From the NCBI GenBank assembly GCA_041560205.1, contig JBFFBV010000015.1, forward strand, positions 1,571 to 65,570: a stretch of DNA of 64,000 nucleotides, read 5' to 3'. Below, in pieces: positions 12,663 through 30,510 of this stretch. A program made the translations under genes and the position numbers. The DNA is from Candidatus Sulfomarinibacter sp. (GTDB lineage: Bacteria > Acidobacteriota > Thermoanaerobaculia > Thermoanaerobaculales > Sulfomarinibacteraceae). The notes beneath the pieces are model-generated. The model had not been told where the DNA came from. It did not search any database and worked only from the letters and a program-made list of their open reading frames with translations. The number at the start of each line of letters is the position of its first letter. Within the stretch, counting starts at the first letter, position 1.

Positions 12663-12684
12663 AATGTTACCCACGAGTAACATT
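12663..12684. promoter_or_regulatory. Perfect palindrome AATGTTAC-N6-GTAACATT (operator candidate)
   Basis: 8-bp arms read directly. It lies in the 483-bp divergent intergenic region between the two cytidylate-kinase-like paralogues. Confidence 0.4.
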
Positions 12685-12758: not shown

Positions 12759-12779
12759 ATTGAGACAGGAAATCTCAAT
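12759..12779. promoter_or_regulatory. Palindrome ATTGAGA-N7-TCTCAAT
   Basis: 7-bp arms in the same divergent intergenic region. Confidence 0.3.
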
Positions 12780-13060
12780 GGCATGTATTTTGCTCGAATC
12801 CTACCCGGCCCCGGTGCCGTGGATGACCTCGTCGCGGACGATGCGGCGGACATCCCTCCGACACGAGGCAGTGTTGTTTCGAAGCGGTGAACTCAGCGCC
12901 CGGTTGGCGAGTCGGAATCGCGTTGCCCACGCGATGTGGGATCCGATTGCCAAAAGAGCCGCTGCAGAACGACTTTCGCGTCGTCCGGTCACAACTCAGG
13001 CGTACACTGGTCCAACCGCCGGTCTTCAACCGGAGAGTTCGTTTCGGGGGTTCCATATCC

Positions 13061-14488
13061 ATGGCCATCATCACGATTTCTAGGGGAATCTGCAGCGGTG
13101 GCGCCCATTTGGCGGACGAGTTGCATGCAATCCTCGGTTGGAAATCCCTCAGTCAAGAGGATGTATCGACCGCCGCGGCACAGGCCTACCGGATGACCGA
13201 ACAGGAGCTCTTTCGAGGGCTGTACCTGCCAGCCAACTTCTTCGAACGCTTCACCCACCGCAAGACACGCTACCTCCTCGCCACCCAGGCAACGGTCACC
13301 GAGTTGCTCGCCGACGGCAACGGTATCTATCACGGACTCGCCGGGCAATTCCTTTTCGCCGATCTCTGCAACGCCTTCAAGGTACGGATCGTCGCACCGA
13401 TGGACTATCGGATCGAAAATGCGATGCAGCGTTTCGGTCTGAAGAAGGACGAGGCCCGGCGTCACATTCACGACGCCGATGAATACCGTTCTCGGTGGGG
13501 GCGACAGATCTTCCACGCTGATATCACCGACACCGCCCTTTATGACCTGGTCGTCAACCTCGAACACCTGAGCATCGACAGGGCCGCGAAGATGATCGCC
13601 GAAACCATGGAGGGAGAGGACTACCAGCCCACACCGCAGTGCGTTCAGGAGTATCGGGACTTCGCTCTCGAAAGGCGGGTCAAGGCAGAGCTCTTTTTCA
13701 ACTCGCCCTTCACTCCAGAAATAGCCCGGGTCGAGGTTCGGAACTCCGAGGTTTTCTTGTCCGGAGACAAGTCCTTTGCGGCGTCGGAGAGCGGCCTCAT
13801 CGAATTCGTCGGCAAGATTCGGGGGGTCGAAAAAATCACCACGGATCACGGCACAGTCGGTACCGCGGATATCCGGCTCGATTCGGACTTTGCCCTGTCG
13901 TCACGCGACGCCAAGGCTCGTGACGTGATGTTGCCGCCGGAGAGGTATCCGCACTGCAGGTTGAGCTGTACGATCCGCGAGGCGGTCGTCGCTCTCAGCG
14001 CGTCTGCCATCAAGCTCCAGGACGGCTACATCATGTTGCCGCGCTATGTGTTGGTTCTGGACAACGACGACCGCTTGGTGGGTGTGGTCAGCCGGCGCGA
14101 GCTTCTCAAGGGCCTGATCCCTCACCTGCACGAGGATCGAGAGGCCGCGGCCCACATCAAAGAGTTGGTGCCCTTCGGAGGCGCGATGCCGAGCGAGGTG
14201 GCCATTCGATGGACATCTCTGTTCTCGCGTTCGGCCATCGAAGCTTCGATGACGCCGATCCAAACCGTCATGGTGCCGATCAAGGGCACCGTCCAGTGCG
14301 AGGATACGCTGTCGACGGTGATCTCGACGATGCTCTTCCACGGGGTCGATCTGGTTGCGGTCCTCGATGGCGAAAAGGTGGCGGGCGTCGTCCTGATGAC
14401 CAACATCTTCGACATCGTCGCGCAGTTCATCATGGAGTACGGACAGCCCGTCGTGCCCGAAGGCGGCAAGGACGGCGACGATGCCTGA
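13061..14488 (+). CDS. Cytidylate-kinase-like / BON-like / CBS-pair fusion protein
   Basis: ATG 13061. Paralogous N-terminus MAIITISRGICSGGAHLADEL. Middle segment VEVRNSEVFLSGDKSF...IRGVEKI looks BON-like. The C-terminus has two CBS-like repeats (VLDNDDRLVGVVSRRELL and VLDGEKVAGVVLMTNIF). Confidence 0.7.
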   Translation: MAIITISRGICSGGAHLADELHAILGWKSLSQEDVSTAAAQAYRMTEQELFRGLYLPANFFERFTHRKTRYLLATQATVTELLADGNGIYHGLAGQFLFADLCNAFKVRIVAPMDYRIENAMQRFGLKKDEARRHIHDADEYRSRWGRQIFHADITDTALYDLVVNLEHLSIDRAAKMIAETMEGEDYQPTPQCVQEYRDFALERRVKAELFFNSPFTPEIARVEVRNSEVFLSGDKSFAASESGLIEFVGKIRGVEKITTDHGTVGTADIRLDSDFALSSRDAKARDVMLPPERYPHCRLSCTIREAVVALSASAIKLQDGYIMLPRYVLVLDNDDRLVGVVSRRELLKGLIPHLHEDREAAAHIKELVPFGGAMPSEVAIRWTSLFSRSAIEASMTPIQTVMVPIKGTVQCEDTLSTVISTMLFHGVDLVAVLDGEKVAGVVLMTNIFDIVAQFIMEYGQPVVPEGGKDGDDA

Positions 14489-16055
14489 AGCCCTGCCAAA
14501 CGCCGCTTTCGAACCCGGGGCGAAACCCCGCCGGCGTTGGACGATCCGATTCCGGAAAAAACCCGAAAAAGCGATCGACTGGAAACGGCTCATCTTCCTT
14601 TTTCTCGGCGTCTCGCTTTTCTTCGCGGTCTTCCTGTCACCACCGTGGCCCGATGCAATCGACCCAATGGGGGAGGCGTTCGCGCTCAGCTCCCAAGGTA
14701 AGGCGGCGCTCGGTCTGTTTCTCTTGGCCGCCGTGTGGTGGGTCTTCGAGGTCGTGCCGATCGGCGTCACCAGCATCACGATCGCCGTTGTTCAGGTCCT
14801 CTTCCTGATTCGTCCGGACGTCATGCTGGTCGGCGGCACCGATCCGGTTCGTGGCGGCGAGCTTGCATTCAAGGAGTTCATGCACCCTTCAGTATGGTTC
14901 ATCTTCGGCTCGATCGTCATCGGCATGGTTTTCACGAAAACAGGTCTGACCAAGCGGCTGGCGTACAAGATGCTGGTCCTGGTCGGCGAGAAGACGAGCC
15001 GTATCTACCTCGGCTGCTTCATCATGACCGCCGTTCTCACCCACGTCATGGCGCACACCGCGGTCGCCGCCACCATCTTCCCGCTGCTGGTCGCCATCTA
15101 CCGCCTCTACGAGGAAGGCGACGAGCCGACCCGATTCGGCAAGGGGCTGTTCATGGGAATGGCCTATGTCGCCGGCGCCGGCAGCATCGTCACCCTGCTC
15201 GGTGCGGCGCGCGGCGCGGTCGCCCTCGGTTTCTACAAGGAGATCACCGGCGGGGACGTCAGCTTCTTCGGCCTCACCTGGTACATGTTCCCCATCGGGT
15301 GGGCGATGGTCTTTGCCCTGTGGGCCTTCTTCATGGTTTACTACAAACCGGAACGGGCATCGATCCCCGGGCTCAGAGAACGCGCCAGGGACCTCTACAC
15401 CAACCTCGGACCGATCACCACCAAGGAGATCCAGGCTGCGGTCATCGTGCTCTCGGCGGTTTCGGTCATGAGCCTCCGCTCCTTTATCCCGGCCCTCAAG
15501 AACGTCGACAAGAGCGGAGTCATCCTGACAGCCACGGTGCTCTTTTTCGTGCTCAAGATTCTCGACATCGGCGACCTCGAAGACGTGCCGTGGAACATCA
15601 TCCTGCTCTTCGGCGGCGCCATGAGTCTTGGCTACTGTCTGGTCCTCACCGGCGCGGCGGACTGGTTAGCCATCAACACCGTATCGCTGCTCCAATCGGC
15701 GCCCGCTTTGGTCTTCATCATCGGCATGGCGACATTTGTCATGATCATGACCAACCTCATCATGAACGTCGCCGCAATCGCCATCTGCCTCCCGGTCGCT
15801 CTCAAGGTGGCGCCGTACCTCGGCGTCGGCGGCGAGGTGATCCTGTTCAGCGCGCTGGTGGTGGCCGGAATGCCGTTCCTGTTGCTTGTCGGCGCAGCTC
15901 CCAACGCCATTGCCTACGAGAGCAAACAGTTCACATCGGGCGAGTTCTTCAAGGCCGGAGTTCCGGCGAGCATCACGCTCATTATCGTCACCGCGGTCTT
16001 CGTGATTTTCATCTGGCCAGTGATGGGCATGGAGGTGATCATTCCCACTCCATGA
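14481..16055 (+). CDS. SLC13/DASS-type anion:cation symporter (ArsB/NhaD permease superfamily)
   Basis: Overlaps the upstream gene by 8 nt. About 12 TM segments. Duplicated hairpin-type motifs HTAVAATIFPLL and MNVAAIAICLPV. Confidence 0.75.
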   Translation: MPEALPNAAFEPGAKPRRRWTIRFRKKPEKAIDWKRLIFLFLGVSLFFAVFLSPPWPDAIDPMGEAFALSSQGKAALGLFLLAAVWWVFEVVPIGVTSITIAVVQVLFLIRPDVMLVGGTDPVRGGELAFKEFMHPSVWFIFGSIVIGMVFTKTGLTKRLAYKMLVLVGEKTSRIYLGCFIMTAVLTHVMAHTAVAATIFPLLVAIYRLYEEGDEPTRFGKGLFMGMAYVAGAGSIVTLLGAARGAVALGFYKEITGGDVSFFGLTWYMFPIGWAMVFALWAFFMVYYKPERASIPGLRERARDLYTNLGPITTKEIQAAVIVLSAVSVMSLRSFIPALKNVDKSGVILTATVLFFVLKILDIGDLEDVPWNIILLFGGAMSLGYCLVLTGAADWLAINTVSLLQSAPALVFIIGMATFVMIMTNLIMNVAAIAICLPVALKVAPYLGVGGEVILFSALVVAGMPFLLLVGAAPNAIAYESKQFTSGEFFKAGVPASITLIIVTAVFVIFIWPVMGMEVIIPTP

Positions 16056-16100
16056 TCTGTCGTGGGCTGGCCGTGAACCGAATACTTCGGAGGGCAATGC

Positions 16101-16727
16101 ATGCCGACCTCGAAACTGATTTCCGGGCATCGACGATTCAGGGAGAAGTTCGAATCCGACCACGAGGTCTTCGCGAAGCTCGCCGAGGAAGGCCAGAATC
16201 CCAAGGTGATGTGGATCGGGTGTGCGGATTCGCGCGTCGTGCCCGAGCTCATCACCGGCGCCGATCCCGGAGAGCTCTTCGACGTCCGCAACATCGCCAA
16301 CGTCGTCCCTCCGGCGGCGTCCGGGGCCTGCGCCACCGGTGCCGCGGTCGAGTACGCGGTCATTCACCTCAAGGTACGGCACATCGTGGTCTGCGGCCAC
16401 ACCGAGTGCGGCGGGGTGAGGGCCCTCGAGGGCTTCCCTGATACCGACAACGAACCCCACATCACCTCGTGGTTGGAGTACGTGCGGCCCGCTCGCAATC
16501 GTGTTCTCGACGCCGGGGTTCCCGACAACGACCAGTATCTCGAAACCATCAAGGCCAATGCCCTGATGCAGTGTGAGAACCTCCGCACCTATCCCTGCGT
16601 CGCGCACGCGGAGAAGACGGGCGAGCTTTCGATCCACGCCTGGTTGTACGATCTCCACACCGGCACGATCTCCGCCTACGACGAAGTTTCCGCGACATGG
16701 GCCGCGGTGGCCGAGCAGCTGCCATGA
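16101..16727 (+). CDS. Beta-class carbonic anhydrase
   Basis: 208 aa. CADSRV and HTECGG carry the Cys / His-x-x-Cys zinc ligands and the Asp-Arg dyad of beta-CA. Confidence 0.9.
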   Translation: MPTSKLISGHRRFREKFESDHEVFAKLAEEGQNPKVMWIGCADSRVVPELITGADPGELFDVRNIANVVPPAASGACATGAAVEYAVIHLKVRHIVVCGHTECGGVRALEGFPDTDNEPHITSWLEYVRPARNRVLDAGVPDNDQYLETIKANALMQCENLRTYPCVAHAEKTGELSIHAWLYDLHTGTISAYDEVSATWAAVAEQLP

Positions 16728-16779
16728 GGCAACACCGGAAGATCATCCATAGGCCGACCAGCGTTCACTGCGCTACCAT

Positions 16780-18546
16780 GTGCACCACCTGGGACCCGGC
16801 TCGGGGGAATCGATGACACCGTCCAACGGCGCTGAACATGCACCCGTCCGACGCTTCAGCGTGCCGACAGCAACTGCCGTGCTGGCACTGATCATCATTG
16901 CGCCCCTGGTGATCACCGGCGCCGTCAATCTCTACCAATTCCGCCAGGCCTACCACGCCAAGGTCACGAACGAGCTGTCGGTCATGATCGAGCGGCACAG
17001 CTTGACCGTTGACTCCTTCATCAACGATCGGCTGAGCGACGTTCGGGTCATTGCCCGCGAGCACCCCATCGAGCGACTTCAGGATTCCGAGTTCCTGCGT
17101 CGCGTGCTCAATCTCATGCGCGAGGAGTACCACGGTGCCTTTGTCGATCTCGGGCTCGTCGATTCCAGCGGCGTTCAAGTGGCATATGCGGGGCCCTTCA
17201 ACCTCCAGATGGCCGACTACTCGACCGCTGCCTGGTTTCAGAACGCGGCGGCCAGTGAAAGCGTGATCAGCGACGTCTTTGCCGGCTTACGCGGGTCCCC
17301 ACACTTTATCGTCGCAACCCAGAAGACGGCGGGCAGCGAGCACTACGTGATCAAGGCAACCATCGATTTCGAGGCCTTCAACGCCTTGGTTGAAAACCTG
17401 CGCATCGGCAACACCGGCTTTGCCTTCATCATCAACCGCGGCGGCGCGTTCCAGACCAACCCCCATTTCGAGGTTGCCCTCAATCGTCCGCCGTGGGTCG
17501 ATCTGCTCGATGGTCGCATCCGCGCCGACCGCATCTCGGTGCTGGAGGGCGACGATGTGCTCGGCCGCGCGGCGATCTTCACCATTGCTCCGCTCAAACA
17601 CGGGCAGTGGTTTCTGTGTTACCAGCAGGAAAGATCAGACGCATTCGCCGAGCTCCGTCGGGTTCAGGATTTCGCAGCTGCGGTGCTGATCATTGTTTCG
17701 TTGGCAGCGGTTTTCGCGGGTTACCTCATCTCCCGTAACCTGGCCCAGCGTCTGGCCGACGCGTACCGGGAACGGACCGTCATGGCCCACCAGGTGATTG
17801 AAACCGGACGCCTCGCATCAATCGGCGAGCTCGCCGCCGGCATCGCCCATGAGATCAACAACCCGGTGGCGATCATGGTCCAGGAGGCCGGCTGGATCGA
17901 CGATCTGCTCGGCGAGGGCGAGCCGTGCAGTGAAGAGAATCTCGACGAGATCACCCGTGCGGTCGGCCAGATCCGCACCCAGGGCGATCGCTGTAAGGAG
18001 ATCACCTACAAGCTGCTCAGCTTCGCGCGCAAGACCGACCCGACAATCCGCGAGGTAGAACTCAATGAGGTGGTTGACGAGGTCATCGGCCTGACCAGCC
18101 AGAAGACCCGCTACGCGAACGTCCGTGTCGAAACCGACCTGAGCCCGGATCTGCCGACGATCCAGGCCTCTCCGTCCGAGCTCCAGCAGGTGCTCCTCAA
18201 CCTGGTCAACAACGCCATCGATGCGATCGAACGGCCCGGCGGCACCGTCACCGTGGCCACGAGATCCGACGGCGACGGCGTCATCCTCGAGGTTCGGGAC
18301 ACCGGCAAGGGCATTCCGGAGGCCAACCTCGGCCGGATCTTCGACCCCTTTTTCACCACCAAACCGGTCGGCCAGGGCACCGGTCTCGGTCTGCCGATCT
18401 GCTACGGCATCGTCGAGAAGATGGGCGGACGGATCGGCGTCGAAAGTGAAATCGAAAAGGGCACCACATTCACCGTGTTCATTCCTCGGACGGCCCCCGA
18501 GAGCTCGACACACGGTGAATCCACCGCCGCGGGAGAACGGTCATGA
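16780..18546 (+). CDS. Sensor histidine kinase with periplasmic Cache-like domain
   Basis: TM, about 250 aa periplasmic Cache-like region, then a second TM. H-box [12 protein letters not shown]-box [12 protein letters not shown]1 DTGKGI, G2 GTGLGL. Start is GTG 16780 or ATG 16813. Confidence 0.85.
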
Positions 18547-18983
18547 TGGAACCCACAGTCCTCGTCGTCGACGACGAGGTCGCCTTCGTTGAAACGCTCG
18601 TCAAACGTCTCGTTAAACGGGACCTTCGTGTGCTTGCGGCCTACAGTGGTCCCGAAGCGCTCGCGAAGCTCGAAGCCAGCGGACCGACCAAGGTCGACGT
18701 GGTCATCCTCGACGTCAAGATGCCGGGCATGGATGGGCTTGAAACGCTCGCTCGCATCAAGGAACAGCAGCCTCTGATCGAGGTCGTCATGCTCACCGGT
18801 CACGCGACCGTCGAGTCCGCGATCGACGGCATGAAGAAGGGCGCCTTCGATTACCTGATGAAACCCTGCGAAGTCGACCTCCTGCTGGAGAAGATCAACC
18901 AAGCGACGACCAAGAAACGTGAGCACGAAGCAAAGATCCTGGAGGCGAAAGCATCCCTCATCTCGCTGCGGAGGGGAGACTGA
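18543..18983 (+). CDS. Stand-alone response-regulator receiver with coiled-coil tail
   Basis: ATGA overlap with the kinase stop. VVDDE, ILDVKMPGMDG, LTGHA and YLMKP retain all phospho-acceptor residues. No output domain. Confidence 0.85.
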   Translation: MMEPTVLVVDDEVAFVETLVKRLVKRDLRVLAAYSGPEALAKLEASGPTKVDVVILDVKMPGMDGLETLARIKEQQPLIEVVMLTGHATVESAIDGMKKGAFDYLMKPCEVDLLLEKINQATTKKREHEAKILEAKASLISLRRGD

Positions 18984-18997
18984 GAGAGAGAGAGAGA
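18982..18997. repeat. (GA)8 dinucleotide repeat
   Basis: gagagagagagagaga lies between the stop at 18981-18983 and ATG 19001 and doubles as the purine-rich RBS region of the second receiver gene. Confidence 0.9.
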
Positions 18998-19000
18998 AAG

Positions 19001-19387
19001 ATGGCCGAGGACTCCCAGGCCCAGAGGCTGCTGCTGGTGGATGACGAGGTTGGATATCTCGAGGTGCTTTCCAAAAGGCTCACCCATCGCGGTTTCGACG
19101 TCACGACAGCATCGAGCGGCGAGGAGGCGATCCGCGCCCTGCGGAATTGGGAGTTCGACCTCGCTGTCGTGGACCTGAAGATGGAGGACATGGACGGCAT
19201 CGAGGTGCTCAAAGTCCTGAAGAGAATGGACCCCGCGTTGCAGGTCATCATTTTGACCGGTCACGGCTCGGAACGCGCCGCTCGGGACGGTCTCGCTCAC
19301 GGAGCCTTCGACTATCTGATCAAACCGATCGGTCTCGATCCGCTGATTGAGAGAATCCGCGCCGCCCTGAGCTCGGATTCCTCGTGA
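19001..19387 (+). CDS. Stand-alone response-regulator receiver
   Basis: 128 aa. LVDDE, VVDLKMEDMDG, LTGHG and YLIKP are present. No output domain. Confidence 0.85.
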   Translation: MAEDSQAQRLLLVDDEVGYLEVLSKRLTHRGFDVTTASSGEEAIRALRNWEFDLAVVDLKMEDMDGIEVLKVLKRMDPALQVIILTGHGSERAARDGLAHGAFDYLIKPIGLDPLIERIRAALSSDSS

Positions 19388-19466
19388 CGATTCTCGAGCT
19401 GCGGTTGATGGCCGCATTTCGAGCGCCTGGAGTCGTCGCCTCACTATTGCTAGAAGGGGGACAGCT

Positions 19467-20777
19467 ATGAGCTTTTTCAAGGCGTGGGGAGAGTTCATGA
19501 CGGTCGCGACCCGCGCCCACGCGAGGTGGGAGCTCGAAACATCGAACAGGATTCTCCACGATCCCAAACGACTGCTGGTACTGGTCCTTCTGGTCGTGCC
19601 GATCTTCGTCTTCGGACCCGCAGTGGCGGCCCAGATGATGGACTCCGCGGCCGCCGCGGGCGAGACGCTACCGGACGTGCTGGGCGGCAAGAAGGCCTAC
19701 AGTCCCGCCTTTTACTCGACCGGGATCTTCATCGCGTCGATCCTCATTGGGCTCTGCGCGGGTCTGATCACCGGCTGTATCGGCGCCGGCGGAGGTTTCA
19801 TCATTGCACCGGCGTTGATGTCGGCCGGCATCAAGGGCATCCTCGCCGTCGGCACCGATCTGTTCCACATCTTCGCCAAAGCGATCATGGGCAGTGTCAT
19901 CCACCGCAAGCTCGGCAACGTGTCGGTGCCGCTCGCGGTTACCTTTCTGATCGGCGCGATCGGCGGCGCCACCATCGGCGGGATCATCAACCGGGTGCTG
20001 TACGAGATCAACCCGGTGCTGTCGGACGCCTTCATCACTACCATCTACTCGCTCATGCTGGGCGGGCTTGGTGCCTACGCCATGATGGATTACCTCAAGG
20101 CCCGCAAGAGAGCGGCCCCCGACGAAGGTGCCCACGGCGGGCGTGCTGAGGGCGCGGAGCTCGGCAAGCTGCCCAAAAAGCTGCAGGCGATCAACGCACC
20201 GCCGATGATCACCTTCGACCAGAACCTGGTTCCCGGCGGCCGCCGGATCTCGGCCTGGTTCCTGATCGCGAGCGGCTTCCTGGTCGGCTTCGCGGCCGCC
20301 ATCATGGGGGTCGGCGGCGGCTTCCTGACCTTCCCGATCTTCGTCTACACCCTCGGTGTGTCGTCGATGACCACGGTCGGCACCGACATCTTCCAGATCG
20401 TCTTCACCGCCGGCTACGCAGCCATCAGCCAGTACGCGATCTACGGCTTCATTTTCTACACCCTGGCCATGGGTATGTTGATCGGCTCGCTCTTCGGCGT
20501 CCAGGTCGGCGCCATGGTGACCAAGGTGGTCAAGGGCATCACGATTCGCGGCTTCTACGCGATGGCGGTGCTGGGCGGCTTCGTCAACCGCATCTTCGCC
20601 CTTCCCGGCAAGCTCTCGGATCTCGAGGTCATCTCGCTTTCGCCCGGCACCGTCGCCGTGCTCGACGGCATCGGCATCTGGGCCTTCTTCATCGTCATCG
20701 GCGGCTTCGCCGTGTGGGTCCTGTGGACCTTCGTCAGCAACCTCGGCAGACTGCGCGGGGCAGAGGTGGCGCCATGA
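19467..20777 (+). CDS. TSUP (TauE/SafE, DUF81) family permease, long form
   Basis: 436 aa. Two 4-TM halves, each with the glycine motif (GCIGAGGGFIIAP, IMGVGGGFLTFP), separated by a charged loop. Confidence 0.8.
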   Translation: MSFFKAWGEFMTVATRAHARWELETSNRILHDPKRLLVLVLLVVPIFVFGPAVAAQMMDSAAAAGETLPDVLGGKKAYSPAFYSTGIFIASILIGLCAGLITGCIGAGGGFIIAPALMSAGIKGILAVGTDLFHIFAKAIMGSVIHRKLGNVSVPLAVTFLIGAIGGATIGGIINRVLYEINPVLSDAFITTIYSLMLGGLGAYAMMDYLKARKRAAPDEGAHGGRAEGAELGKLPKKLQAINAPPMITFDQNLVPGGRRISAWFLIASGFLVGFAAAIMGVGGGFLTFPIFVYTLGVSSMTTVGTDIFQIVFTAGYAAISQYAIYGFIFYTLAMGMLIGSLFGVQVGAMVTKVVKGITIRGFYAMAVLGGFVNRIFALPGKLSDLEVISLSPGTVAVLDGIGIWAFFIVIGGFAVWVLWTFVSNLGRLRGAEVAP

Positions 20778-21466
20778 GCAGGATCAAGAAGAAGAAGCTC
20801 GGCATCGGTCTTTTCTTGATGGTCACCTTCACTGCGGTGATGGCCGTCATCTTCATGCCGCTGTTCGACGACGGCAACGCACTGGACTCCCTCGACAATC
20901 TCTACAACTCGATTTCCAAGGGCTCGGCGAACTACATCGAGAAGGTCGGGCACCTCGTCGAGAAGCACGGCAGCGAGGTGGTTACGCTCAATCTGAAGAT
21001 GGATGACTCGCAGGCGGCCGAAAAGGCAGAGGTGCTCTTCGCGACGGCCGGTCTCACGACGGCTGTCGAGACCAACAATCTGATGGTCCACGGTGACCTC
21101 GAGACCATTTTCGGCGCCTGCCTCAGTGACGCCGAGTCTGCCTACCACAACAGGAGGGAAGACTTCGTCGACAAATACGGGGTTGGCGCCCGTTACGCCT
21201 TGCACTCCTGGTGGCAGGCTCTGAAAGCCATGGAAAAAGATCTCAATCGGCAGAAGCTCTTTCCCGCCGCCCAGCTCACCCACACGGTGCAGGCCAAGAC
21301 CGTGGAGTGCGCCTACAACTACTACGGCATCGAGGCGCAGGCGATCAAGGATCGTTGGAGAACCGTCCTGTTCTCGCTCGTCTTCTACGTGCTCTACACG
21401 ATCTGGTACGGCTACGCGATCATGTACATCTTCGAGGGCCTCGGATTCGAGCTGGCAGCGCATTAG
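20774..21466 (+). CDS. Hypothetical two-TM membrane protein
   Basis: ATG 20774 overlaps the TSUP stop (ATGA). N-terminal TM LGIGLFLMVTFTAVMAVIFM, about 170 aa soluble region, C-terminal TM VLFSLVFYVLYTIWYGYAIMYIF. No family recognised. Confidence 0.6.
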   Translation: MSRIKKKKLGIGLFLMVTFTAVMAVIFMPLFDDGNALDSLDNLYNSISKGSANYIEKVGHLVEKHGSEVVTLNLKMDDSQAAEKAEVLFATAGLTTAVETNNLMVHGDLETIFGACLSDAESAYHNRREDFVDKYGVGARYALHSWWQALKAMEKDLNRQKLFPAAQLTHTVQAKTVECAYNYYGIEAQAIKDRWRTVLFSLVFYVLYTIWYGYAIMYIFEGLGFELAAH

Positions 21467-21536
21467 GTTTTCGTAACGCGGTAGGATGGGCCTGAGATCG
21501 GGGCGGACCGCCCGCCCCGGTTGGGGAGGATGCGGC

Positions 21537-21974
21537 ATGGCTATCTCGGTGCTCCTGGTCGACGACGAAGAGGCCTTCGTGCAGACGCTCGCCAAGCGGC
21601 TGACGCTTCGTCGATTCAACGTCTATACCGCCAGTCGAGCCGAGAAGGTCTTTTCCACTCTCCAGCAATACCCGATCGACGTCGTTGTCCTCGACGTCAA
21701 GATGCCGGATCTCGACGGGATCGAGACCACCCAGGTCATCAAGACAGATCACCCGCTGATCGAGATCATTCTCCTCACCGGTCACGCCAGCCTCGAAGCT
21801 TCGCTCGAGGGGATGAGGCGAGGGGCCTTCGACTACCTGCTCAAACCGGTCAACATCGACGAGCTGGTTTACAAGATCGAGGACGCTCACGAGAAAAAGA
21901 AACTGCAGGAGGAGAAGATCAAGCGCCTGGAAGACCGCACTGAAGCGGCCGACGACGCCGAATCCGACACATGA
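21537..21974 (+). CDS. Stand-alone response-regulator receiver with coiled-coil tail
   Basis: ATG 21537 after GGGGAGGA. LVDDE, VLDVKMPDLDG, LTGHA and YLLKP are present. Lys/Glu-rich C-terminal tail. Confidence 0.85.
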   Translation: MAISVLLVDDEEAFVQTLAKRLTLRRFNVYTASRAEKVFSTLQQYPIDVVVLDVKMPDLDGIETTQVIKTDHPLIEIILLTGHASLEASLEGMRRGAFDYLLKPVNIDELVYKIEDAHEKKKLQEEKIKRLEDRTEAADDAESDT

Positions 21975-21975
21975 G

Positions 21976-24555
21976 ATGAATGCACCCTCATGGTTGCGCC
22001 AATTGATCGACCGCCTTCGCGGCGCTCCGTCGAAGCGGCCTGACCCCGAGGAGGCGCGAAACCTCTTTCAGCGGCGTTACCACGCCTTGCGGTTGTTGCT
22101 CGCCGCCAACACGAGGGCTCTCAAGGCCATGGCGGCGATGGAAGGAGCCGCAATCGAGGGTGGCGCCGTCGGCATGACCTTCGTCCACTCCCACTGCACC
22201 GCGATCGGCGTCAATGTCTTCAAAATGGTGCGAAACCTCGACATGCTCGCGCCGGACAAATACACCCTCTTGTTCGACCGCATCGAAGAGATTCAGGGCC
22301 GAATCGACCGCGAGCTCGCGGCCGTTCCCCCGGCCGATGATGTGCCGCCCATCCTGCCGATGGACGCGGTTCATCACATCCACATTGACGTCACTGGCTC
22401 GAAGATGGCCAGCCTCGGCGAGGTCGCCAACAACGTCGGGCTTCCAGTGCCGGACGGCTTTGTCATCACCACCTCGGCCTATCAGCGTCTGATCGCCGCC
22501 AACGACCTCCAGCCCGAAATCAGTCGCTTGCTCCAGGCCTACCAGTCGGAGGAGCTCGATGAGCTCTTCGTCCTTGCATCCAAACTCCAGCAGCTCATCC
22601 TGACGGCCGAGGTGCCGGAGGAGATTGCGATCGCCATCGACGGCGCAGCCGAGGCGACCGGTCCAGCCCCCGACAGCACATTCGCCATGCGGTCGAGTGC
22701 ACTCGGAGAGGACGCGGCCGGGGTCTCGTTTGCCGGTCAGTACGAATCGCTCCTCAACGTGCGCCGCACCCATCTGGTCGACAGCTATCTCGAGGTTGTC
22801 GCCAGCAAGTACACACCGCAGGCGATGCAGTACCGCAAACAGCGTGGAATCCGAGACGACCAGGTGGCGATGAGCGTCGGATGTCTGGAGATGGTCGACG
22901 CCCGGTCAGGAGGCGTGGTGTACTCCGGCAATCCGGGCAACGACCGGGATTCCGATGTCTATATCAGCTCCGCCTGGGGACTGCCGAAGTCGATCGTCGA
23001 CGGTCGATTCGCCTCGGATCTCTTCGTTGTTCACAGAGACGGAAAGCTCGCGGAGCGTTCCCGTGAGATCGGTGTCAAGCAAAGCCAGTTTGTCCGCCAC
23101 CCTCGCGAGGGCGTGCGTCGATCAGAGGTTTCCGCCGACAAACAACGGCAACCGAGCCTCAGCGATGAGGAGGTCATCGAGATCGCGGAGGCCGCCCTCA
23201 AGCTGGAGTCCCACTTTGGCAAGCCGGTCGACGTCGAGTGGGCAATCGATCGCGACGGCACGCTCGTGATTCTCCAATGCCGTCCCTTGACGCAGTCAAT
23301 CGGCACCTCCGATCACGAGCTTCCCGTGGACACCCCTTTGCCGCTGATCAGAGGAGGCGTCGCCGCCAGCCCGGGAGTCGCCGCCGGTCCGATCCACTGG
23401 GTCAATCGAGACGCCGATGCGCTGTCCTTTCCCCGCAATGCCGTCCTCGCCCTCGTCCAGCCACTGCCCCGGTGGGCCGCACTGCTCGATCGCACCGCCG
23501 CAGTGATCGCCGAGGAGGGTGGGGTCGCCGGACATCTGGCGACCGTGGCCCGCGAGCTCGGTGTGCCGGCAATCCTTGGCGCCGGACCACTCACCACGCT
23601 CGAAAACGGTCTCGAGGTCACGGTCGACGCCAGTGGCCGCGCCGTCTACCCGGGCGTGATCGAGACGCTGATCGAACGTCGCGCCGAGCCTCCGAAGGTG
23701 GATGGCGACAACCCGATCCGGCGTACCCTCCGCTCGGCGCTGGCCCACATCGCGCCCCTGAATCTGGTCGACCCCACGAGCCTCGACTTCACGCCCGGCA
23801 GCTGTGAAACCATGCACGACATCACGCGTTTCTGTCACGAAAAGGCCGTGCAGGAGATCTTCGCCTTCGGTTCGGAAAGCTCCTTTCCCGAATACGCGAG
23901 CAAACAGCTCCACCACAACGTTCCCATGCAATGGTGGGTGTTGGACCTCGGGAACGGCCTGAAAGGGCCTGTCTTCGGGAAATACGTGCATCTCGACGAC
24001 ATCGCCTGCAGGCCGATGTTGGCGCTGTGGGACGGCATGGTCGCGGTGCCGTGGGACGGCCCGCCCGCTATCAGTGGCCGTGGCTTGGCATCAGTGCTTT
24101 TTCAGGCGACCGCGAACCCGGCGCTCTCCAGCCCCTTCAAGAAGCCGTATGCCAACCGGAACTACTTCATCATCTCCAAGCACTTCATGAACCTCCAGTC
24201 ACGATTCGGCTTCCACTTCACAAATGTCGAGGCGCTCGCGGGAGAGCGTCCGGAGGAAAACTACCTGAGTTTTTCGTTCAAAGGCGGCGCCGCCAACCAG
24301 GAGCGCAGGGTCGGTCGCGCACGTTTGATCGGCGATCTCCTCCGAGGACTCGGTTTCGAGATCAACCTCACCGAGGATATGGTGACCGCACGCAGGACCG
24401 GCCTTCAACAGCAAGATGTCGCAAAAGGCCTGCGAGTCGTCGGCTACCTCCTGATGCACACCCGCCAACTCGACATGGTCATGGACAAGCCAGCTGCGGT
24501 GGAACACTATCGAGCCAAAATGCAGAAGGACATCGAAAACCTGGCGGTGAACTGA
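21976..24555 (+). CDS. PEP-synthase/PPDK-like enzyme (ATP-grasp PEP/pyruvate-binding domain + swivel His domain) with unassigned N- and C-terminal regions
   Basis: Starts 1 nt after the receiver stop. VGLPVPDGFVITTSAY, FAMRSSALGEDAAGVSFAGQYES and VEWAIDRDGTLVILQCRP indicate a PPDK_N-type ATP-grasp. GGVAGHLATVARELGVPAI is the phospho-His swivel. The last 300 aa or so are not recognised. Confidence 0.8.
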   Translation: MNAPSWLRQLIDRLRGAPSKRPDPEEARNLFQRRYHALRLLLAANTRALKAMAAMEGAAIEGGAVGMTFVHSHCTAIGVNVFKMVRNLDMLAPDKYTLLFDRIEEIQGRIDRELAAVPPADDVPPILPMDAVHHIHIDVTGSKMASLGEVANNVGLPVPDGFVITTSAYQRLIAANDLQPEISRLLQAYQSEELDELFVLASKLQQLILTAEVPEEIAIAIDGAAEATGPAPDSTFAMRSSALGEDAAGVSFAGQYESLLNVRRTHLVDSYLEVVASKYTPQAMQYRKQRGIRDDQVAMSVGCLEMVDARSGGVVYSGNPGNDRDSDVYISSAWGLPKSIVDGRFASDLFVVHRDGKLAERSREIGVKQSQFVRHPREGVRRSEVSADKQRQPSLSDEEVIEIAEAALKLESHFGKPVDVEWAIDRDGTLVILQCRPLTQSIGTSDHELPVDTPLPLIRGGVAASPGVAAGPIHWVNRDADALSFPRNAVLALVQPLPRWAALLDRTAAVIAEEGGVAGHLATVARELGVPAILGAGPLTTLENGLEVTVDASGRAVYPGVIETLIERRAEPPKVDGDNPIRRTLRSALAHIAPLNLVDPTSLDFTPGSCETMHDITRFCHEKAVQEIFAFGSESSFPEYASKQLHHNVPMQWWVLDLGNGLKGPVFGKYVHLDDIACRPMLALWDGMVAVPWDGPPAISGRGLASVLFQATANPALSSPFKKPYANRNYFIISKHFMNLQSRFGFHFTNVEALAGERPEENYLSFSFKGGAANQERRVGRARLIGDLLRGLGFEINLTEDMVTARRTGLQQQDVAKGLRVVGYLLMHTRQLDMVMDKPAAVEHYRAKMQKDIENLAVN

Positions 24556-24601
24556 AGCCGATCGGAAGAAACGCCCATCGGCGAGCATTGTACGGTCGGG
24601 A

Positions 24602-25660
24602 ATGAGCAAGCAACGGATCACCAACGGGGCCCTCGCCGAGGCGCTGTTCGCGCTCGCCGAGTCGGAACCGCCCGGAGACCGGCGGCTGGCGTTGTTGCGC
24701 GCCGGATACCTCGCCTTCGACAGCCCTGGCAGACCGCATCGCGACCTGCAACGAAATGCGCCGAGCTGGCTGCAGCCGCTGCTTCAGCAGCTGGTGGCAT
24801 GCCGCGGCAACGACGCTCTTCATGCCGCGGTCCAACGCCTCAAGGGCGACGAAAACCCTCGCCGCAGGAACACCCGTCAGGGATATCTGAGCCGCTCGGA
24901 AGTGACCGAGATCCTCGAATCGGGCCCTGCCGATCTCCACCCCCGGCGGCAGCGCGGCGCGTGCCACTGGCACACCCGCAACTCGGACGGCAAGGCGTCA
25001 CTCGAGACCATGGCGCGGGCCTGCGTGAGGCGCGGCTACGCGTGGTCGATGGTCGCCGATCACTCGCGCGGTCTCGAGGTTGCCTCCGGTCTCGACGCAG
25101 AAGGCGTGTGGCTTCAGCGGCAACGGATCGACCGATGGAACGACCAGCACGGCGATGACCACCGCATCTTCCAGGGGCTCGAAATCGAGGTTCTGGAAGA
25201 TGGCACACTCGACGTGCCGAAAGGCGAACGTCTCGAGGTGGAGTGTGTGGTGGCCGCAGTCCACAGCCACTTCGACGCCGACCGCGATCAGACCGAGCGC
25301 CTGCTTCGCGCTGTCAATTCGCCCGAAGTCCATGTCCTCGCGCATCCGCGCGGCCGGCATTTCCATCACCGGCCCGGCATCAAGGCGCGCTGGGAAAAGG
25401 TTTTTTCGGCCTGCGCCGAAACGGGAGTCGCTGTCGAGATCAACGGCTTCCCCCGCCGTCAGGACCTCGACCCCGACCTCGCGCGGCTCGCCGTCGAATC
25501 GGGCTGCGAGATCATGCTTGCCTCCGACGCGCACGCCGCGCCTCATCTCGAGTTCGACACCTTTGCATCAGCCATCGCGATGCGCGCCGAGGTGCCCCGC
25601 GAGGGCATCCTGAACATTCAACACGCCGACGAGTTCGAGGCGTGGCTTGAGGAGCGCTGA
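24602..25660 (+). CDS. PHP-domain phosphoesterase
   Basis: HWHTRNSDG (HxH) plus later His/Asp ligands (AAVHSH, ASDAH), as in PolX C-terminal PHP domains. No polymerase-beta domain seen. Confidence 0.7.
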   Translation: MSKQRITNGALAEALFALAESEPPGDRRLALLRAGYLAFDSPGRPHRDLQRNAPSWLQPLLQQLVACRGNDALHAAVQRLKGDENPRRRNTRQGYLSRSEVTEILESGPADLHPRRQRGACHWHTRNSDGKASLETMARACVRRGYAWSMVADHSRGLEVASGLDAEGVWLQRQRIDRWNDQHGDDHRIFQGLEIEVLEDGTLDVPKGERLEVECVVAAVHSHFDADRDQTERLLRAVNSPEVHVLAHPRGRHFHHRPGIKARWEKVFSACAETGVAVEINGFPRRQDLDPDLARLAVESGCEIMLASDAHAAPHLEFDTFASAIAMRAEVPREGILNIQHADEFEAWLEER

Positions 25661-25819: not shown

Positions 25820-26287
25820 CTATCGATTAGCCGGTGGGGTGCCCGCGATGCTGATCGAAGCGGACGGCTGGTTCGAGTTGATCACCGCCTCGACCTCGAC
25901 CAGGGTGGTGGTCTGAAGTCGCTCCCGGAGCATGTTGTTGGCTTCAACCAGAATCTGTCCGAGGATGCACGACTCGCCGTCACAGATGGCCGAGCTCAGA
26001 AGGCACTGGCTCGGTTCGAACCGGCCCTCGATGGCTTCGAAGATCTCGAGCAGAGTCACCGACTCGGGCTCGCGGGTCAGGATGAATCCGCCCCGCGGGC
26101 CGCGAACCGAGCGCACCAGCTCGACCTTGACCAGGCGTTGCAGCACCTTCGAAAGGTGGGCTTCGGAAATCTCGAACCAATTGGCGATCTCCCGGGAGGT
26201 GATCGGTCCGTCCTCACGTTTGGCGAGGTATCCAAGGGCGTGCATCGCCAGCGACGCCGCCTCGGAGATCTTGAGAGCACGCGGCAT
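25820..26287 (-). CDS. Rrf2-family transcriptional regulator with three-Cys cluster
   Basis: wHTH ITSREIANWFEISEAHLSKVLQRLVK. QCLLSSAICDGESC (C-x6-C-x4-C) sits where IscR/NsrR-type members carry Fe-S ligands. Start is ATG 26287, with TTG 26308 as an alternative. Confidence 0.85.
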   Translation of the reverse strand: MPRALKISEAASLAMHALGYLAKREDGPITSREIANWFEISEAHLSKVLQRLVKVELVRSVRGPRGGFILTREPESVTLLEIFEAIEGRFEPSQCLLSSAICDGESCILGQILVEANNMLRERLQTTTLVEVEAVINSNQPSASISIAGTPPANR

Positions 26288-26340
26288 TTCGTTCTCCGGC
26301 TCGTTCAATGTGTCGCAGAAGTCGGCGCCGGATGGCGCCG

Positions 26341-26492: not shown

Positions 26493-28451
26493 GTGGTGAG
26501 CGATTCCACCGCCACCGACCCTCGTTTTCCCGCTCGCTTCAACGAGCTGCCGTGGTACCGGACCAACGTGCCGTGCATGGAGGCTTGTCCGGTTCATACA
26601 GATTCCGGGCGTTATGTCCAGCTCATCGGCGAAGGGCGTTTCGAGGAAGCATTTTTGATCGCTCGCGCGCCAAACCCGCTCGCGTCGGTTTGCGGCCGGG
26701 TCTGCTCCGCGCCGTGCGAGGATGCCTGCCGCCGCGGCTGGGTCGACGAAGCAGTCACCATCCGGCCGCTCAAACGATTCGTCACCGAGCAATTCGGAGC
26801 CGAGTCGGCGCGCCCCGATTTCTTCAAGCTCCTGATGTCCGACCCACAGATCGACGCCGAGGCAGAGGACCCCGGGTGTCGCCGCCGGTGGCACGTGGAC
26901 CAGCTCAGCCGCGAAGAACTCGGCGGTGACCGAGCCCGGCGTGTCGCGATCATCGGCAGCGGTCCGGCCGGACTCGGCTGCGCCCACGATCTCGCGCTTA
27001 TGGGTTACGACGTCACGGTCTTCGAGGCCATGCCCGAGCTCGGCGGCATGCTCCGCTACGGGATTCCCGAGTATCGGCTTCCGCGAGGGGTCATCGACCG
27101 CGAGATCGCGGCGATCGAAAAGCTCGGTGTCACCTTTCTGACCAACATGCCGATCTCCCGCGAGTACGGACTCAGCCACCTCCGCGAGGAAGGCTTCGAA
27201 TCTTTCTTCCTGTCGGTCGGCGCAACGCGCGGCCGGGATCTCAATATCGAAGGCGCCGACAAGGACGGGGTCATCAAGGCGGTGGACTATCTCCTCAACC
27301 TCAACCGCGGCTACCGGGTCGATCTCGGAGACCGGGTCGTGGTCATCGGCGGTGGATCGGTGGCGCTCGACGCCGCGCGGACCGCAGTCCGCGAGTTCTA
27401 CCAACCGATGGAGGAGATCGAACTGACCGCCCACGCGGTCGCCAGCCAGCCAGCGATGGACGCCGCTCGCGGAGCGCTGCGAGGCGGCGCCTCCGAGGTC
27501 CACGTCATCTCTCTCGAATCCCTCGAAGAAATGCCGGCGGCGCAGACGGTACAGGGCAAGGACGAGCTCGACGAGGCGCTCGAGGAAGGCATTCTCCTCC
27601 ATCCGGGGTGGGGCCCAACGAAGATCGCCGGCGACGGGGAGGTCGAGTCCATCGAGTTCGTCGGCGTCGAGCGCGTCTTCGACGACAACGGCCGTTTCAA
27701 TCCCTCTTTCGACAAATCCCGGACGATGGTCCTCAACGCCGACTCGGTCATCCTCGCCATCGGTCAACAACCCGATTTCGACTTTCTCACCGCGGCGGAC
27801 GCCATCGAGCTGAGCCCGACCGGAACGGTCAAAATCGACCCCGACACCCTGGCGACGACCGCCCCCGGCGTCTTTGCCGGCGGCGACGCCGCCTTCGGTC
27901 CCCGCATCGCCATCGAGGCGGTGGCCAACGGCAAACACGCTGCGCGCTCGATCCACGAGTTCCTGTCGGGCACGGCCGCCGAGACGAAGATGCGGGTCGC
28001 AATCGATCTGATCCCAGCCGCCGAGTACGCGATGCCCGAAGTCTATGAAAAGAAGAGCCGCCGGGCGGCGCCGACGGTTGCCTCGGGCCGACGTACAGGG
28101 ATCACCGAGGTCGAAGAGGTGATGTCTCCGGAGCAGGCCAGGAACCAGGCCGAGCGCTGCCTGTCGTGCCATGTCGACACCATTTACGACCCGCACCGTT
28201 GCGTGCTGTGCAACCGTTGCGCGGACGTCTGTCCCGAGAAGTGTCTGACCTTTCTACCCCTTGATCGGGTCGAGATGCCGGTCGAACAGCTCGAGAAGGC
28301 GATCGAGGCCTATGGCCATGACCCGGATGAGCCCATGACCGTCCTTCTCAAGGACGACACGATCTGCATACGCTGTGGGCTCTGCGCGGCGCGTTGCCCG
28401 ACCGAGGCGATCACCATGGAACGCTTCAACTTCATCGAATCAACGGGGTGA
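26493..28451 (+). CDS. GltD/NfnB-like NAD(P)H-dependent Fe-S flavoprotein with C-terminal 2x[4Fe-4S] ferredoxin domain
   Basis: GTG start. N-terminal Cys clusters (CMEACP, CGRVCSAPCEDAC), Rossmann loops IIGSGPAG and VIGGGSVA, GVFAGGD. C-terminal CVLCNRCADVCP and CIRCGLCAARCP. No signal peptide. Confidence 0.8.
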   Translation: MVSDSTATDPRFPARFNELPWYRTNVPCMEACPVHTDSGRYVQLIGEGRFEEAFLIARAPNPLASVCGRVCSAPCEDACRRGWVDEAVTIRPLKRFVTEQFGAESARPDFFKLLMSDPQIDAEAEDPGCRRRWHVDQLSREELGGDRARRVAIIGSGPAGLGCAHDLALMGYDVTVFEAMPELGGMLRYGIPEYRLPRGVIDREIAAIEKLGVTFLTNMPISREYGLSHLREEGFESFFLSVGATRGRDLNIEGADKDGVIKAVDYLLNLNRGYRVDLGDRVVVIGGGSVALDAARTAVREFYQPMEEIELTAHAVASQPAMDAARGALRGGASEVHVISLESLEEMPAAQTVQGKDELDEALEEGILLHPGWGPTKIAGDGEVESIEFVGVERVFDDNGRFNPSFDKSRTMVLNADSVILAIGQQPDFDFLTAADAIELSPTGTVKIDPDTLATTAPGVFAGGDAAFGPRIAIEAVANGKHAARSIHEFLSGTAAETKMRVAIDLIPAAEYAMPEVYEKKSRRAAPTVASGRRTGITEVEEVMSPEQARNQAERCLSCHVDTIYDPHRCVLCNRCADVCPEKCLTFLPLDRVEMPVEQLEKAIEAYGHDPDEPMTVLLKDDTICIRCGLCAARCPTEAITMERFNFIESTG

Positions 28452-28456
28452 GAGCT

Positions 28457-30502: not shown

Positions 30503-30510
30503 GGTAGACG

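Follow-up and report, generated by a model that had tools for sequence, protein, structure and literature searches.

A conserved receiver, permease and PpsA-like enzyme module in Candidatus Sulfomarinibacter with a look-alike in Desulfovibrio

What does a bacterium control with a sensor kinase and three stand-alone receivers, when the genes beside them encode a permease, a membrane protein of no known family and a relative of phosphoenolpyruvate (PEP) synthase? This question is raised by seven genes at positions 16780-24555 of a 64-kb window from Candidatus Sulfomarinibacter sp. (contig JBFFBV010000015.1), the window being the whole stretch of DNA that was analysed. We found that the unit is real, conserved and non-canonical, and that a look-alike has already been described genetically. 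The initial annotation, made from the sequence, knew of no characterised system with this composition. That statement no longer holds, as the Desulfovibrio "nitrate cluster" has the same composition together with mutant phenotypes (Korte et al. 2014, PMC4001038).

Gene content and conservation of the module

The seven genes are as follows, with the numbering of the window.

16780..18546, + strand: sensor histidine kinase, 588 aa, with a periplasmic dCache_1 domain and a ZraS/AtoS-type HisKA-HATPase core (Pfam, NCBIfam)
18543..18983, + strand: RR1, stand-alone receiver, 146 aa, with a conserved C-terminal tail (Response_reg only)
19001..19387, + strand: RR2, stand-alone receiver, 128 aa, tailless (Response_reg only)
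19467..20777, + strand: TSUP/TauE-family permease, 436 aa, with an N-terminal extension and a long central loop (Pfam TauE)
20774..21466, + strand: 230-aa protein with two transmembrane (TM) helices, translationally coupled to the TSUP gene (no family match)
21537..21974, + strand: RR3, stand-alone receiver, 145 aa, with a charged C-terminal tail (Response_reg only)
21976..24555, + strand: PpsA-like phospho-His enzyme, 859 aa (PPDK_N and PEP-utilizers swivel)

The conservation of this set was examined in a genome scan that was limited to one genome per species. At least 574 stretches with a relative of the PpsA-like gene were obtained and 80 loci were kept (labelled L001 and so on), mostly from Acidobacteriota (Thermoanaerobaculia, Holophagae, Sulfomarinibacteraceae) or Desulfobacterota (Desulfarculaceae, Desulfocarbo indianensis, Desulfacinum infernum, Desulfomonile, Syntrophobacteraceae, Desulfobacteraceae). 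Three distant homologues (53-69% identity) had given the first sight of the same gene order, and a plasmid search for homologues returned none. Eleven window proteins were mapped onto 83 loci by tblastn, and genes were counted in the 52 loci with at least 5 kb of upstream DNA. A receiver was present in 49 of the 52, the TSUP permease with the 230-aa protein in 48, and the histidine kinase in 36. Four parts make up the invariant core, namely a receiver of the RR3 type, the TSUP permease, the 230-aa two-TM protein and the PpsA-like enzyme, and the smallest clusters (e.g., L044, L050, L053, L063, and L084) contain these four alone. The gene for the 230-aa protein always directly follows the TSUP gene in the mapped loci, while the position directly upstream of the PpsA-like gene is taken by an RR3-type receiver gene (41 of 59 loci) or by the gene for the 230-aa protein (16 of 59). 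Because the same gene set recurs in relatives of two phyla, the operon is more than a chance arrangement. The seven genes had been proposed to form one unit, to be discarded if relatives proved non-syntenic; they are syntenic, and no result that was open to testing spoke for discarding it.

One locus bears directly on the link between the receivers and the enzyme. At L097 (4438-11484), which has no TSUP gene close by, a Cache kinase and one receiver stand between two PpsA-like paralogues. This composition without a permease indicates a direct connection between the two-component proteins and the PpsA-like enzyme, and suggests that the enzyme can be the sole output of a two-component pair. The proposal that the receivers have an enzymatic or transport-related output fits both L097 and the frequent adjacency of RR3-type genes to the enzyme gene. 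L062, the one Desulfovibrionaceae locus among those collected, encodes the PpsA-like protein and receivers, and no TSUP permease.

All seven open reading frames, their + strand coordinates, junctions and domains were as first described, according to the open reading frame list, direct reading of the sequence and Pfam. The kinase/RR1 (18543) and TSUP/230-aa (20774) junctions are ATGA overlaps. The spacers measure 17 nt (RR1/RR2), 79 nt (RR2/TSUP), 70 nt (230-aa protein/RR3, assuming that RR3 starts at the ATG at 21537) and 1 nt (RR3/PpsA-like). The RR1/RR2 spacer (18984-19000) is a nearly pure (GA)n run (GAGAGAGAGAGAGAAAG), presumably the ribosome-binding site of RR2.

The genes continue co-directionally and with short gaps on both sides, upstream to 13061 and downstream to 25660, and the seven-gene stretch is therefore only part of the likely operon. 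The four additional genes are listed here.

13061..14488, + strand: Cytidylate_kin2 and CBS-domain protein, 475 aa (Pfam)
14481..16055, + strand: DASS-family (Na_sulph_symp/CitMHS) anion symporter, 524 aa (Pfam)
16101..16727, + strand: beta-class carbonic anhydrase, 208 aa (Pfam Pro_CA, E = 3.5e-48)
24602..25660, + strand: 352-aa protein with a PolX-type PHP phosphoesterase domain at residues 111-352 (PDB sequence match)

These genes are less constant than the core. The DASS gene and the PHP gene each occur in 14 of the 52 loci and the carbonic anhydrase gene in 3, with further copies of the latter in L086 and L087. A CBS gene also heads the cluster in L003, L069, L086, and L087. The DASS protein is 82-89% identical in L001, L003, L019, and L069, and divergent DASS paralogues (24-33%, one 52%) lie in or beside other clusters. 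The PHP domain matched that of Thermus PolX (3b0y/3au2) with E = 6e-46, the Pfam PHP match being below threshold, and the gene follows the PpsA-like gene in Acidobacteriota only; whether the 352-aa protein belongs to the system is uncertain. We also considered a dedicated phosphatase partner and rejected it, since the downstream gene varies: PHP is confined to Acidobacteriota, and a GAF or Cache kinase takes this place in Syntrophobacterales and Terriglobia. In Desulfacinum (L078), a Usp gene follows the module.

The kinase carries dCache_1, HisKA, and HATPase_c domains in Pfam, and its core gave the best NCBIfam matches to AtoS and ZraS. The sensor domain of the cluster kinase differs by lineage, e.g., Cache here and GAF in Desulfacinum. 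The receivers best match the receiver regions of AtoC, ZraR, GlrR, and NtrC, as well as others such as FixJ and NosR. All three keep the DD, D, T, and K residues (acidic pocket, phospho-Asp, Thr, and Lys), as had been noted and as the translations confirm. They had been called close paralogues; the paralogy stands, and the closeness does not, because the pairwise identities of RR1, RR2, and RR3 are only 43-49%. Instead, they represent three separate orthologous groups that maintain their own signatures across phyla. The RR1 tail ends in ...IALRRGD, a motif also found in Desulfacinum and other Desulfobacterota, and RR3 shows the signature DIDELLYKLQDAYKKK followed by a variable charged tail. 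The description of two tailed receivers (RR1 and RR3) and of none with an effector domain was borne out, as Pfam detected Response_reg only.

The PpsA-like enzyme and its membrane partners

Sequence comparisons indicate that the PpsA-like protein is not a PEP synthase and that its ATP-grasp domain and swivel His are intact. The last gene had been described as a PPDK_N ATP-grasp plus a swivel domain, with about 130 N-terminal and about 300 C-terminal residues that could not be assigned, and Pfam agrees: PPDK_N (PF01326) covers residues 139-443 (E = 6e-89) and the PEP-utilizers swivel (PF00391) residues 486-553. The PpsA-like layout is completed by a helical domain at the N-terminus (residues 1-130) and, at the C-terminus, by a domain specific to this family (residues 570-859, nt 23683-24552). 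The His520 (codon at nt 23533-23535) of the GGVAGH motif aligns with the catalytic GGRT(S/C)H histidine of the PEP synthase structures 8a8e, 9dae, and 2ols.

Beyond the swivel, the resemblance to PEP synthase ends. The TIGR01418 (PEP synthase) score was 311.7 bits against a cutoff of 739.75, with only model positions 2-467 of 784 covered, and NF005057 was likewise below its cutoff (315 versus 598 bits). Solved PpsA structures align to residues 129-578 only, and the other partial NCBIfam matches span the ATP-grasp only. PEP-utilizers_C (PF02896) is absent; the isolated C-terminus had no Pfam match even at E <= 10, and a PDB sequence search with the C-terminal 290 residues found nothing. In the AlphaFold2 (AF2) model, with a predicted local distance difference test score (pLDDT) of 74, the C-terminal domain is an alpha+beta fold with antiparallel sheets. 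A Foldseek search with this model gave no significant match, the top hits being YbjN-like proteins (E ~0.05 to 0.09). An ordinary PEP synthase, which would have undone the initial annotation, was rejected on the low TIGR01418 score, the missing PEP-utilizers_C domain, the lack of a PDB match and the non-barrel C-terminus, and the AF2 model ruled out a divergent TIM barrel at the C-terminus. The swivel region gave weak matches to structures of Enzyme I of the phosphotransferase system (PTS), with E ~5e-4.

The C-terminal domain is also the best-conserved region of the protein, with a mean conservation of 0.75 and 92 invariant positions, among them many Arg, His, and Lys residues. In an exhaustive search, it was found in 1179 clusters at 50% identity, nearly all of them with the domain at the C-terminus of ~860-aa proteins of the same architecture. 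The N-terminal helical domain is family-wide as well (77 of 85 loci, the others being cut off by contig ends). We considered this domain as a covarying partner of the receiver tails and abandoned the idea, because it is present in every complete gene and offers no variation to correlate.

Among the longer family members, one informative fusion was found, and none of the longer family members examined was a receiver-PpsA-like fusion. The fusion (L098 2636-6382, protein P0356) is a 1248-aa family member with an N-terminal LMWPc domain (low-molecular-weight phosphatase/arsenate-reductase type), and its gene adjoins MFS and chromate-transporter genes. It echoes the Tyr/dual-specificity phosphatase gene beside DVU0246 of the nitrate cluster and the PHP gene here.

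The TSUP permease matched Pfam TauE (PF01925) with E = 9e-35 (120.8 bits, cutoff 32.6) and had no NCBIfam or PDB match that would point to a subfamily or substrate. This protein (19467-20777) is unusually conserved: across the Acidobacteriota loci, with one exception, it is 85-92% identical, compared with 53-72% for the PpsA-like enzyme in these loci, and elsewhere it is 52-80% identical. Its 90%-identity cluster has 254 members, versus 5 for the PpsA-like protein. A conservation map of the TSUP loops showed nothing diagnostic of a phosphorylation site, and this candidate was dropped. At L086 (7480-8791), TSUP was called as two pieces (220 and 231 aa), and the 230-aa protein and RR3 were not called; either the assembly is faulty here or the module is decaying in this genome.

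The 230-aa protein belongs to no Pfam or NCBIfam family, and it has 1594 homologues in a single-sequence search and 2399 in a profile search. Its AF2 model (pLDDT 86) shows a domain of ~160 residues, alpha/beta plus helical, framed by one TM helix at each terminus, with no significant fold match in the PDB.

Promoter, leader and transcriptional control

Three elements precede the first gene of the longer run.

12665..12682, no strand assigned: palindrome TGTTAC-N6-GTAACA, ~100 nt upstream of the sigma-54 promoter (conservation)
12779..12794, + strand: sigma-54-type promoter TGGCAT-N5-TTTGCT (motif match and conservation)
12795..13060, + strand: leader of about 266 nt, from the promoter to the first gene (conservation, consensus fold)

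The motif at 12779, 267 nt ahead of the CBS gene, has one mismatch to TGGCAC-N5-TTGCW. Allowing up to 2 mismatches, we found 26 sigma-54 matches in the window versus 20 expected, which is not above chance, so that the case for this promoter rests on its positional conservation: 9 related contigs (L087 and eight further metagenome contigs) carry TGGCAC/T-N5-TTGCG at the same position. The conserved promoter probably drives the 11-gene operon. A sigma-54 promoter needs a bacterial enhancer-binding protein (bEBP) for activation, and no sigma-54 activator is encoded anywhere in the 64-kb window; the cluster has no DNA-binding regulator. Given the promoter, the co-directional genes and the lack of an activator in the window, the transcription unit is likely 12779-25660, with eleven genes and a bEBP encoded elsewhere as activator.

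The absence of a DNA-binding output, as initially described, is therefore correct for this window and does not extend to its relatives. In 13 loci (L003, L005, L007, L008, L019, L024, L026, L027, L029, L033, L034, L074, and L082), the kinase gene is directly preceded by one for an NtrC-type sigma-54 activator; these activators are orthologous and share 48-76% identity with that of L003. In L086, an NtrC-type activator gene lies upstream of the CBS gene, making at least 14 activator loci in all. Related loci also have consensus sigma-54 promoters: TGGCAC-N5-TTGCT stands directly before the kinase gene in L005, L007, L008, L019, L027, and L029, with a near-consensus version in L074. In L050, L052, and L060, TGGCAT-N5-TTGCT stands before the TSUP gene.

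The palindrome occurs once in the window, versus 0.01 occurrences expected by chance. It is exact in the window and in 8 related metagenome contigs, is one base off in a ninth (L095), and is absent from the loci with an NtrC-type activator beside the cluster. It lies between the sigma-54 promoter and a divergently oriented Cytidylate_kin2 gene and may be bound by a regulator. The leader contains long invariant blocks across 10 sequences and is far better conserved than the flanking non-coding DNA. RNAalifold predicted 63 pairs, 5 of them with compensatory changes, the sequences being too alike for firm covariation; in this fold, a 5' GGCCCC pairs with GGGGGU just before the ATG. The leader had no Rfam match at E <= 1, and the stability of its single-sequence fold was no greater than that of shuffles (z = -0.83). 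The conservation suggests that the leader may be an undescribed cis-regulatory RNA.

Two Cytidylate_kin2-family genes stand head to head around the promoter region (11771-12643, - strand, and 13061-14488, + strand). The latter is fused to CBS domains, and in L086 to a BON domain as well. These genes are perhaps involved in nucleotide sensing.

Further downstream, a nitrous-oxide reductase cluster (26493-38898) lies between the PHP gene and the SHMT gene. It encodes a GltD-like Fe-S flavoprotein, a Rieske protein, cytochrome b, cytochrome c, NosZ (31762-33669), NosD, an ABC ATPase and a membrane protein, and is preceded by an Rrf2 regulator gene (25820-26308, - strand). In the relatives L001-L003 and L085-L087, the SHMT gene follows 0.2 to 5.2 kb after the module, and the nos cluster therefore looks like a lineage-specific insertion. 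A gene for the selenocysteine-specific elongation factor SelB (648-3086, - strand) indicates that the organism probably makes selenoproteins.

Possible mechanisms and comparison with known systems

What the module does can be approached through its look-alikes. The Desulfovibrio nitrate cluster (DVU0251-DVU0245 / Dde_0597-Dde_0605) encodes a TauE-like permease (DVU0251, Dde_0598), a conserved hypothetical protein (DVU0250, Dde_0600), a PtxB-like binding protein, a PAS/HAMP kinase, a receiver-only protein (DVU0247), a protein with PPDK_N and PEP-utilizers mobile domains (DVU0246, Dde_0604), and a Tyr/dual-specificity phosphatase (DVU0245) (PMC4001038). Transposon mutants in the TauE, hypothetical, receiver or PpsA-like gene grew unimpaired in 100 mM nitrate, G20 mutants were mildly sick on thiosulfate as electron acceptor, and the authors proposed a leaky thiosulfate transporter (PMC4001038). 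Our literature follow-up on DVU0246, DVU0251 or the Dde genes found the 2014 paper alone. In the proteomics of Dissulfuribacter thermophilus, three adjacent genes annotated as PEP synthase, TauE-co-occurring TM protein and TauE rise by 3.4, 1.8, and 1.6 log2, respectively, under thiosulfate disproportionation, and the "PEP synthase" was interpreted as gluconeogenic (PMC13490349). In sulfate reducers, genes for DASS sulfate transporters are also clustered with those for Cache kinases and CBS proteins (Sci Adv 2025, PMC11887813).

In the mechanism that we favour, with a probability of roughly 40%, the region encodes an uptake module for sulfur oxyanions that is controlled by sigma-54 and a two-component system and in which a receiver-gated PpsA-like phospho-His enzyme is needed for permease function. 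It builds on what the sequences show, namely the parts with their conservation and linkage, the promoter, and catalytic motifs that are intact. The substrate, the acceptor and all of the phosphotransfer steps are what we infer, the substrate most likely being a sulfur oxyanion of the thiosulfate or sulfate type.

In this mechanism, a bEBP encoded outside the window would activate the 12779 promoter, yielding the leader RNA and the transcript of the 11 genes. The Cache kinase would sense a periplasmic ligand and phosphorylate the three stand-alone receivers and, in relatives with an NtrC-type activator of their own, that activator too; this step is suggested by the ZraS/AtoS-type core of the kinase, the likeness of the receivers to NtrC, and the gene coupling. 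The TSUP permease and its 230-aa two-TM partner would form the transporter, considering their invariant adjacency and translational coupling. Phosphorylated RR3 would control the PpsA-like protein, which would autophosphorylate His520 from ATP and pass the phosphate on via the C-terminal domain. The phosphate might end up on a protein of the transporter or on the very anion being transported, and this phosphotransfer would be required for the permease to function. That the RR3/PpsA-like step is needed is suggested by the synteny and by the Desulfovibrio look-alike, in which losses of the permease, the hypothetical protein, the receiver and the PpsA-like protein lead to the same phenotype. RR1 and RR2 may be further branches or phosphate sinks. 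The DASS symporter, the CBS protein and the carbonic anhydrase may be lineage-specific additions with the same anion-uptake theme, a theme that recurs in the DASS genes in or beside many clusters and in the MFS and chromate-transporter genes beside the LMWPc-PpsA-like fusion.

Several points weigh against this mechanism. No acceptor of the His520 phosphate was pinpointed, and structure searches gave no significant match for either the C-terminal domain or the 230-aa protein. The 64 kb contain no sign of sulfur-compound respiration, and a nosZ cluster is present instead. The presumed equivalence of the DVU, Dde and DITHS69 genes to those of the window rests on domain composition, sizes, gene order and annotation, and the nitrate-cluster proteins are shorter (320/195/744 aa for DVU0251/DVU0250/DVU0246 versus 436/230/859 aa here). 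The phosphatase-mutant phenotypes are not alike in DvH and G20 (PMC4001038). Moreover, the Desulfovibrio genetics are compatible equally well with an enzyme that acts on an imported anion.

The last point leads to the main alternative, which we regard as possible, if somewhat improbable. Here the TSUP pair would import a small molecule (an oxyanion, a small organic acid or a sulfonate), and the PpsA-like protein would be a true dikinase that phosphorylates this molecule in its C-terminal domain (ATP + X -> AMP + Pi + X-P), with the kinase and receivers merely regulating. PEP synthase, phenylphosphate synthase and rifampin phosphotransferase, each acting on its own substrate, provide precedents. 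PpsA and PPDK have the same domain order, with the substrate domain placed C-terminally after the ATP-grasp and swivel. The C-terminal domain shows the highest conservation in the protein, its invariant polar and basic residues resembling an active site or anion pocket, and the gene is tightly linked to the transporter. We further reason that futile, ATP-wasting phosphorylation of the analogue nitrate could make the permease, receiver and enzyme mutants all nitrate-resistant. The "PEP synthase" gene of D. thermophilus, the strongest-induced of its three adjacent genes (+3.4 log2 in thiosulfate disproportionation; PMC13490349), would also fit. However, a substrate-binding fold is not recognisable in the C-terminal domain, the neighbourhood has no conserved enzyme to use the phosphorylated product, and L097 combines two paralogues, a kinase and a receiver without any transporter. 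The sporadic phosphatase domains (Tyr/dual-specificity in DvH, fused LMWPc, PHP here) suit a protein target at least equally.

We also considered the wider idea that the PpsA-like family, which is defined by its helical N-terminal and unique C-terminal domains, represents an enzyme class not described before, with a role in signalling or energisation: an ATP-grasp/swivel-His protein would be directly gated by, or donate phosphate to, stand-alone receivers and would then phosphorylate a TSUP-type complex or the transported oxyanion (an "oxyanion dikinase"). We judge this unlikely as a whole. If true, it would reveal a previously unrecognised link from His-Asp signalling to ATP-driven phospho-His chemistry in the control of anion uptake, and would provide a molecular explanation for the nitrate sensitivity of sulfate reducers.

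It is quite improbable, in our assessment, that the PpsA-like protein is an alternative ATP-driven phospho-donor to the receivers, transferring phosphate from its swivel His to their Asp in parallel to the Cache kinase. This is the strong form of a coupling proposed in the initial annotation; the enzyme would feed RR3, and perhaps RR1 and RR2, and phosphorylated RR3 would then gate the permease. In 41 of 59 loci an RR3-type gene abuts the PpsA-like gene, in many cases overlapping it or lying 1 nt away, and L097 holds a kinase, a receiver, two PpsA-like genes and nothing more. PTS Enzyme I, to which the swivel region has its weak matches (E ~5e-4), is a precedent for transfer from a swivel His to a protein, and the family-wide N-terminal helical domain could serve protein docking. 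On the other side, a canonical kinase is present in 36 of 52 loci and makes a second phospho-donor unnecessary, the most conserved part of the enzyme, its C-terminal domain, is left without a role, and no receiver-PpsA-like fusion was seen among the long variants examined.

A role in inorganic carbon uptake, with the carbonic anhydrase, DASS and TSUP proteins importing bicarbonate/CO2 and the PpsA-like enzyme acting on pyruvate/PEP or bicarbonate in anaplerosis, is very improbable: the beta-carbonic anhydrase gene does sit between the DASS and kinase genes (gaps of ~50 nt) and the enzyme is PEP-synthase-like, but the carbonic anhydrase is found in 3 of 52 loci and thus outside the conserved core, the enzyme has no PEP/pyruvate-binding domain, and the literature context of the look-alike clusters is sulfur oxyanions.

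Whichever mechanism applies, the module is widespread in anaerobic sediment bacteria, including marine Acidobacteriota (Sulfomarinibacteraceae and Thermoanaerobaculia) and many lineages of sulfate reducers and disproportionators, and its Desulfovibrio look-alike sets the sensitivity to nitrate, a treatment against oil-field souring. Working out the mechanism of three of its parts, namely the PpsA-like enzyme (unique in its C-terminal domain), the 230-aa membrane protein and the conserved trio of stand-alone receivers, would clarify how an enzyme of the phospho-His swivel kind connects to two-component signalling and secondary transport. A functional name could then also be given to ~1200 protein clusters that are now labelled "pyruvate, water dikinase", the type of label that already led to the gluconeogenic reading in D. 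thermophilus (PMC13490349).

Among known systems, the window shares with the NtrB/NtrC (ZraS/AtoS) class the kinase core and the receiver residues, and the 64 kb contain no response regulator with AAA+ sigma-54 activation and HTH domains. The PpsA-like protein resembles PpsA and PPDK in the succession of ATP-grasp, swivel phospho-His and C-terminal acceptor domain and in the aligned GGxxxH histidine. It differs from them in lacking the PEP/pyruvate TIM barrel, in place of which the C-terminal 290 residues form an unrelated alpha+beta domain, in possessing the extra helical N-terminal domain of 130 residues, and in the motif GGVAGH instead of GGRT(C/S)H. With this replacement, the Thr that we take to be targeted by PSRP in PpsA is missing.

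PTS Enzyme I and EI-Ntr (PtsP) are also swivel phospho-His enzymes that hand phosphate to a protein and regulate transporters and kinases. The likeness is an analogy only: the PpsA-like protein lies outside that family, Enzyme I is driven by PEP via a TIM barrel, in contrast to the ATP-grasp and ATP here, and nothing resembling HPr or NPr was noticed as a partner in the window cluster. Rifampin phosphotransferase and PigC/RedH likewise apply ATP-grasp and swivel-His chemistry to non-pyruvate substrates. Enzymes of the rifampin phosphotransferase/PigC type are ordered as ATP-grasp, substrate-binding domain and C-terminal swivel, whereas the swivel of the PpsA-like protein is central (486-553 of 859) and its unique domain C-terminal. 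The corresponding model scores were far below their cutoffs (208 versus 999 bits for RPH, 182 versus 1300 for PigC).

The DASS clusters of Desulfobacteraceae encode DASS, Cache kinase and CBS proteins together, as does the window, and at L074 (Desulfobacteraceae) the PpsA-like module directly adjoins DASS, kinase and receiver genes of this kind (PMC11887813 for the clusters). Their description does not include the TSUP/230-aa/PpsA-like trio, they have WalR-type DNA-binding regulators where the window has stand-alone NtrC-like receivers, and, unlike them, the window cluster has no universal stress protein gene (PMC11887813).

The closest counterpart is the nitrate cluster, which accounts for a phenotype rather than for the way in which the system works. 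Its kinase is of the PAS/HAMP rather than the Cache type, it has one receiver instead of three, its downstream phosphatase is Tyr/dual-specificity rather than PHP, and it lacks the DASS, CBS and carbonic anhydrase genes; conversely, its PtxB-like periplasmic binding protein is missing from this window. The two systems nevertheless share the same parts list in largely the same order (TauE permease, small hypothetical protein, kinase, receiver-only protein and a PpsA-like protein without the PEP-binding domain). In both, a phosphoesterase-type gene follows the PpsA-like gene, and a receiver gene, RR3 in the window, stands immediately before it.

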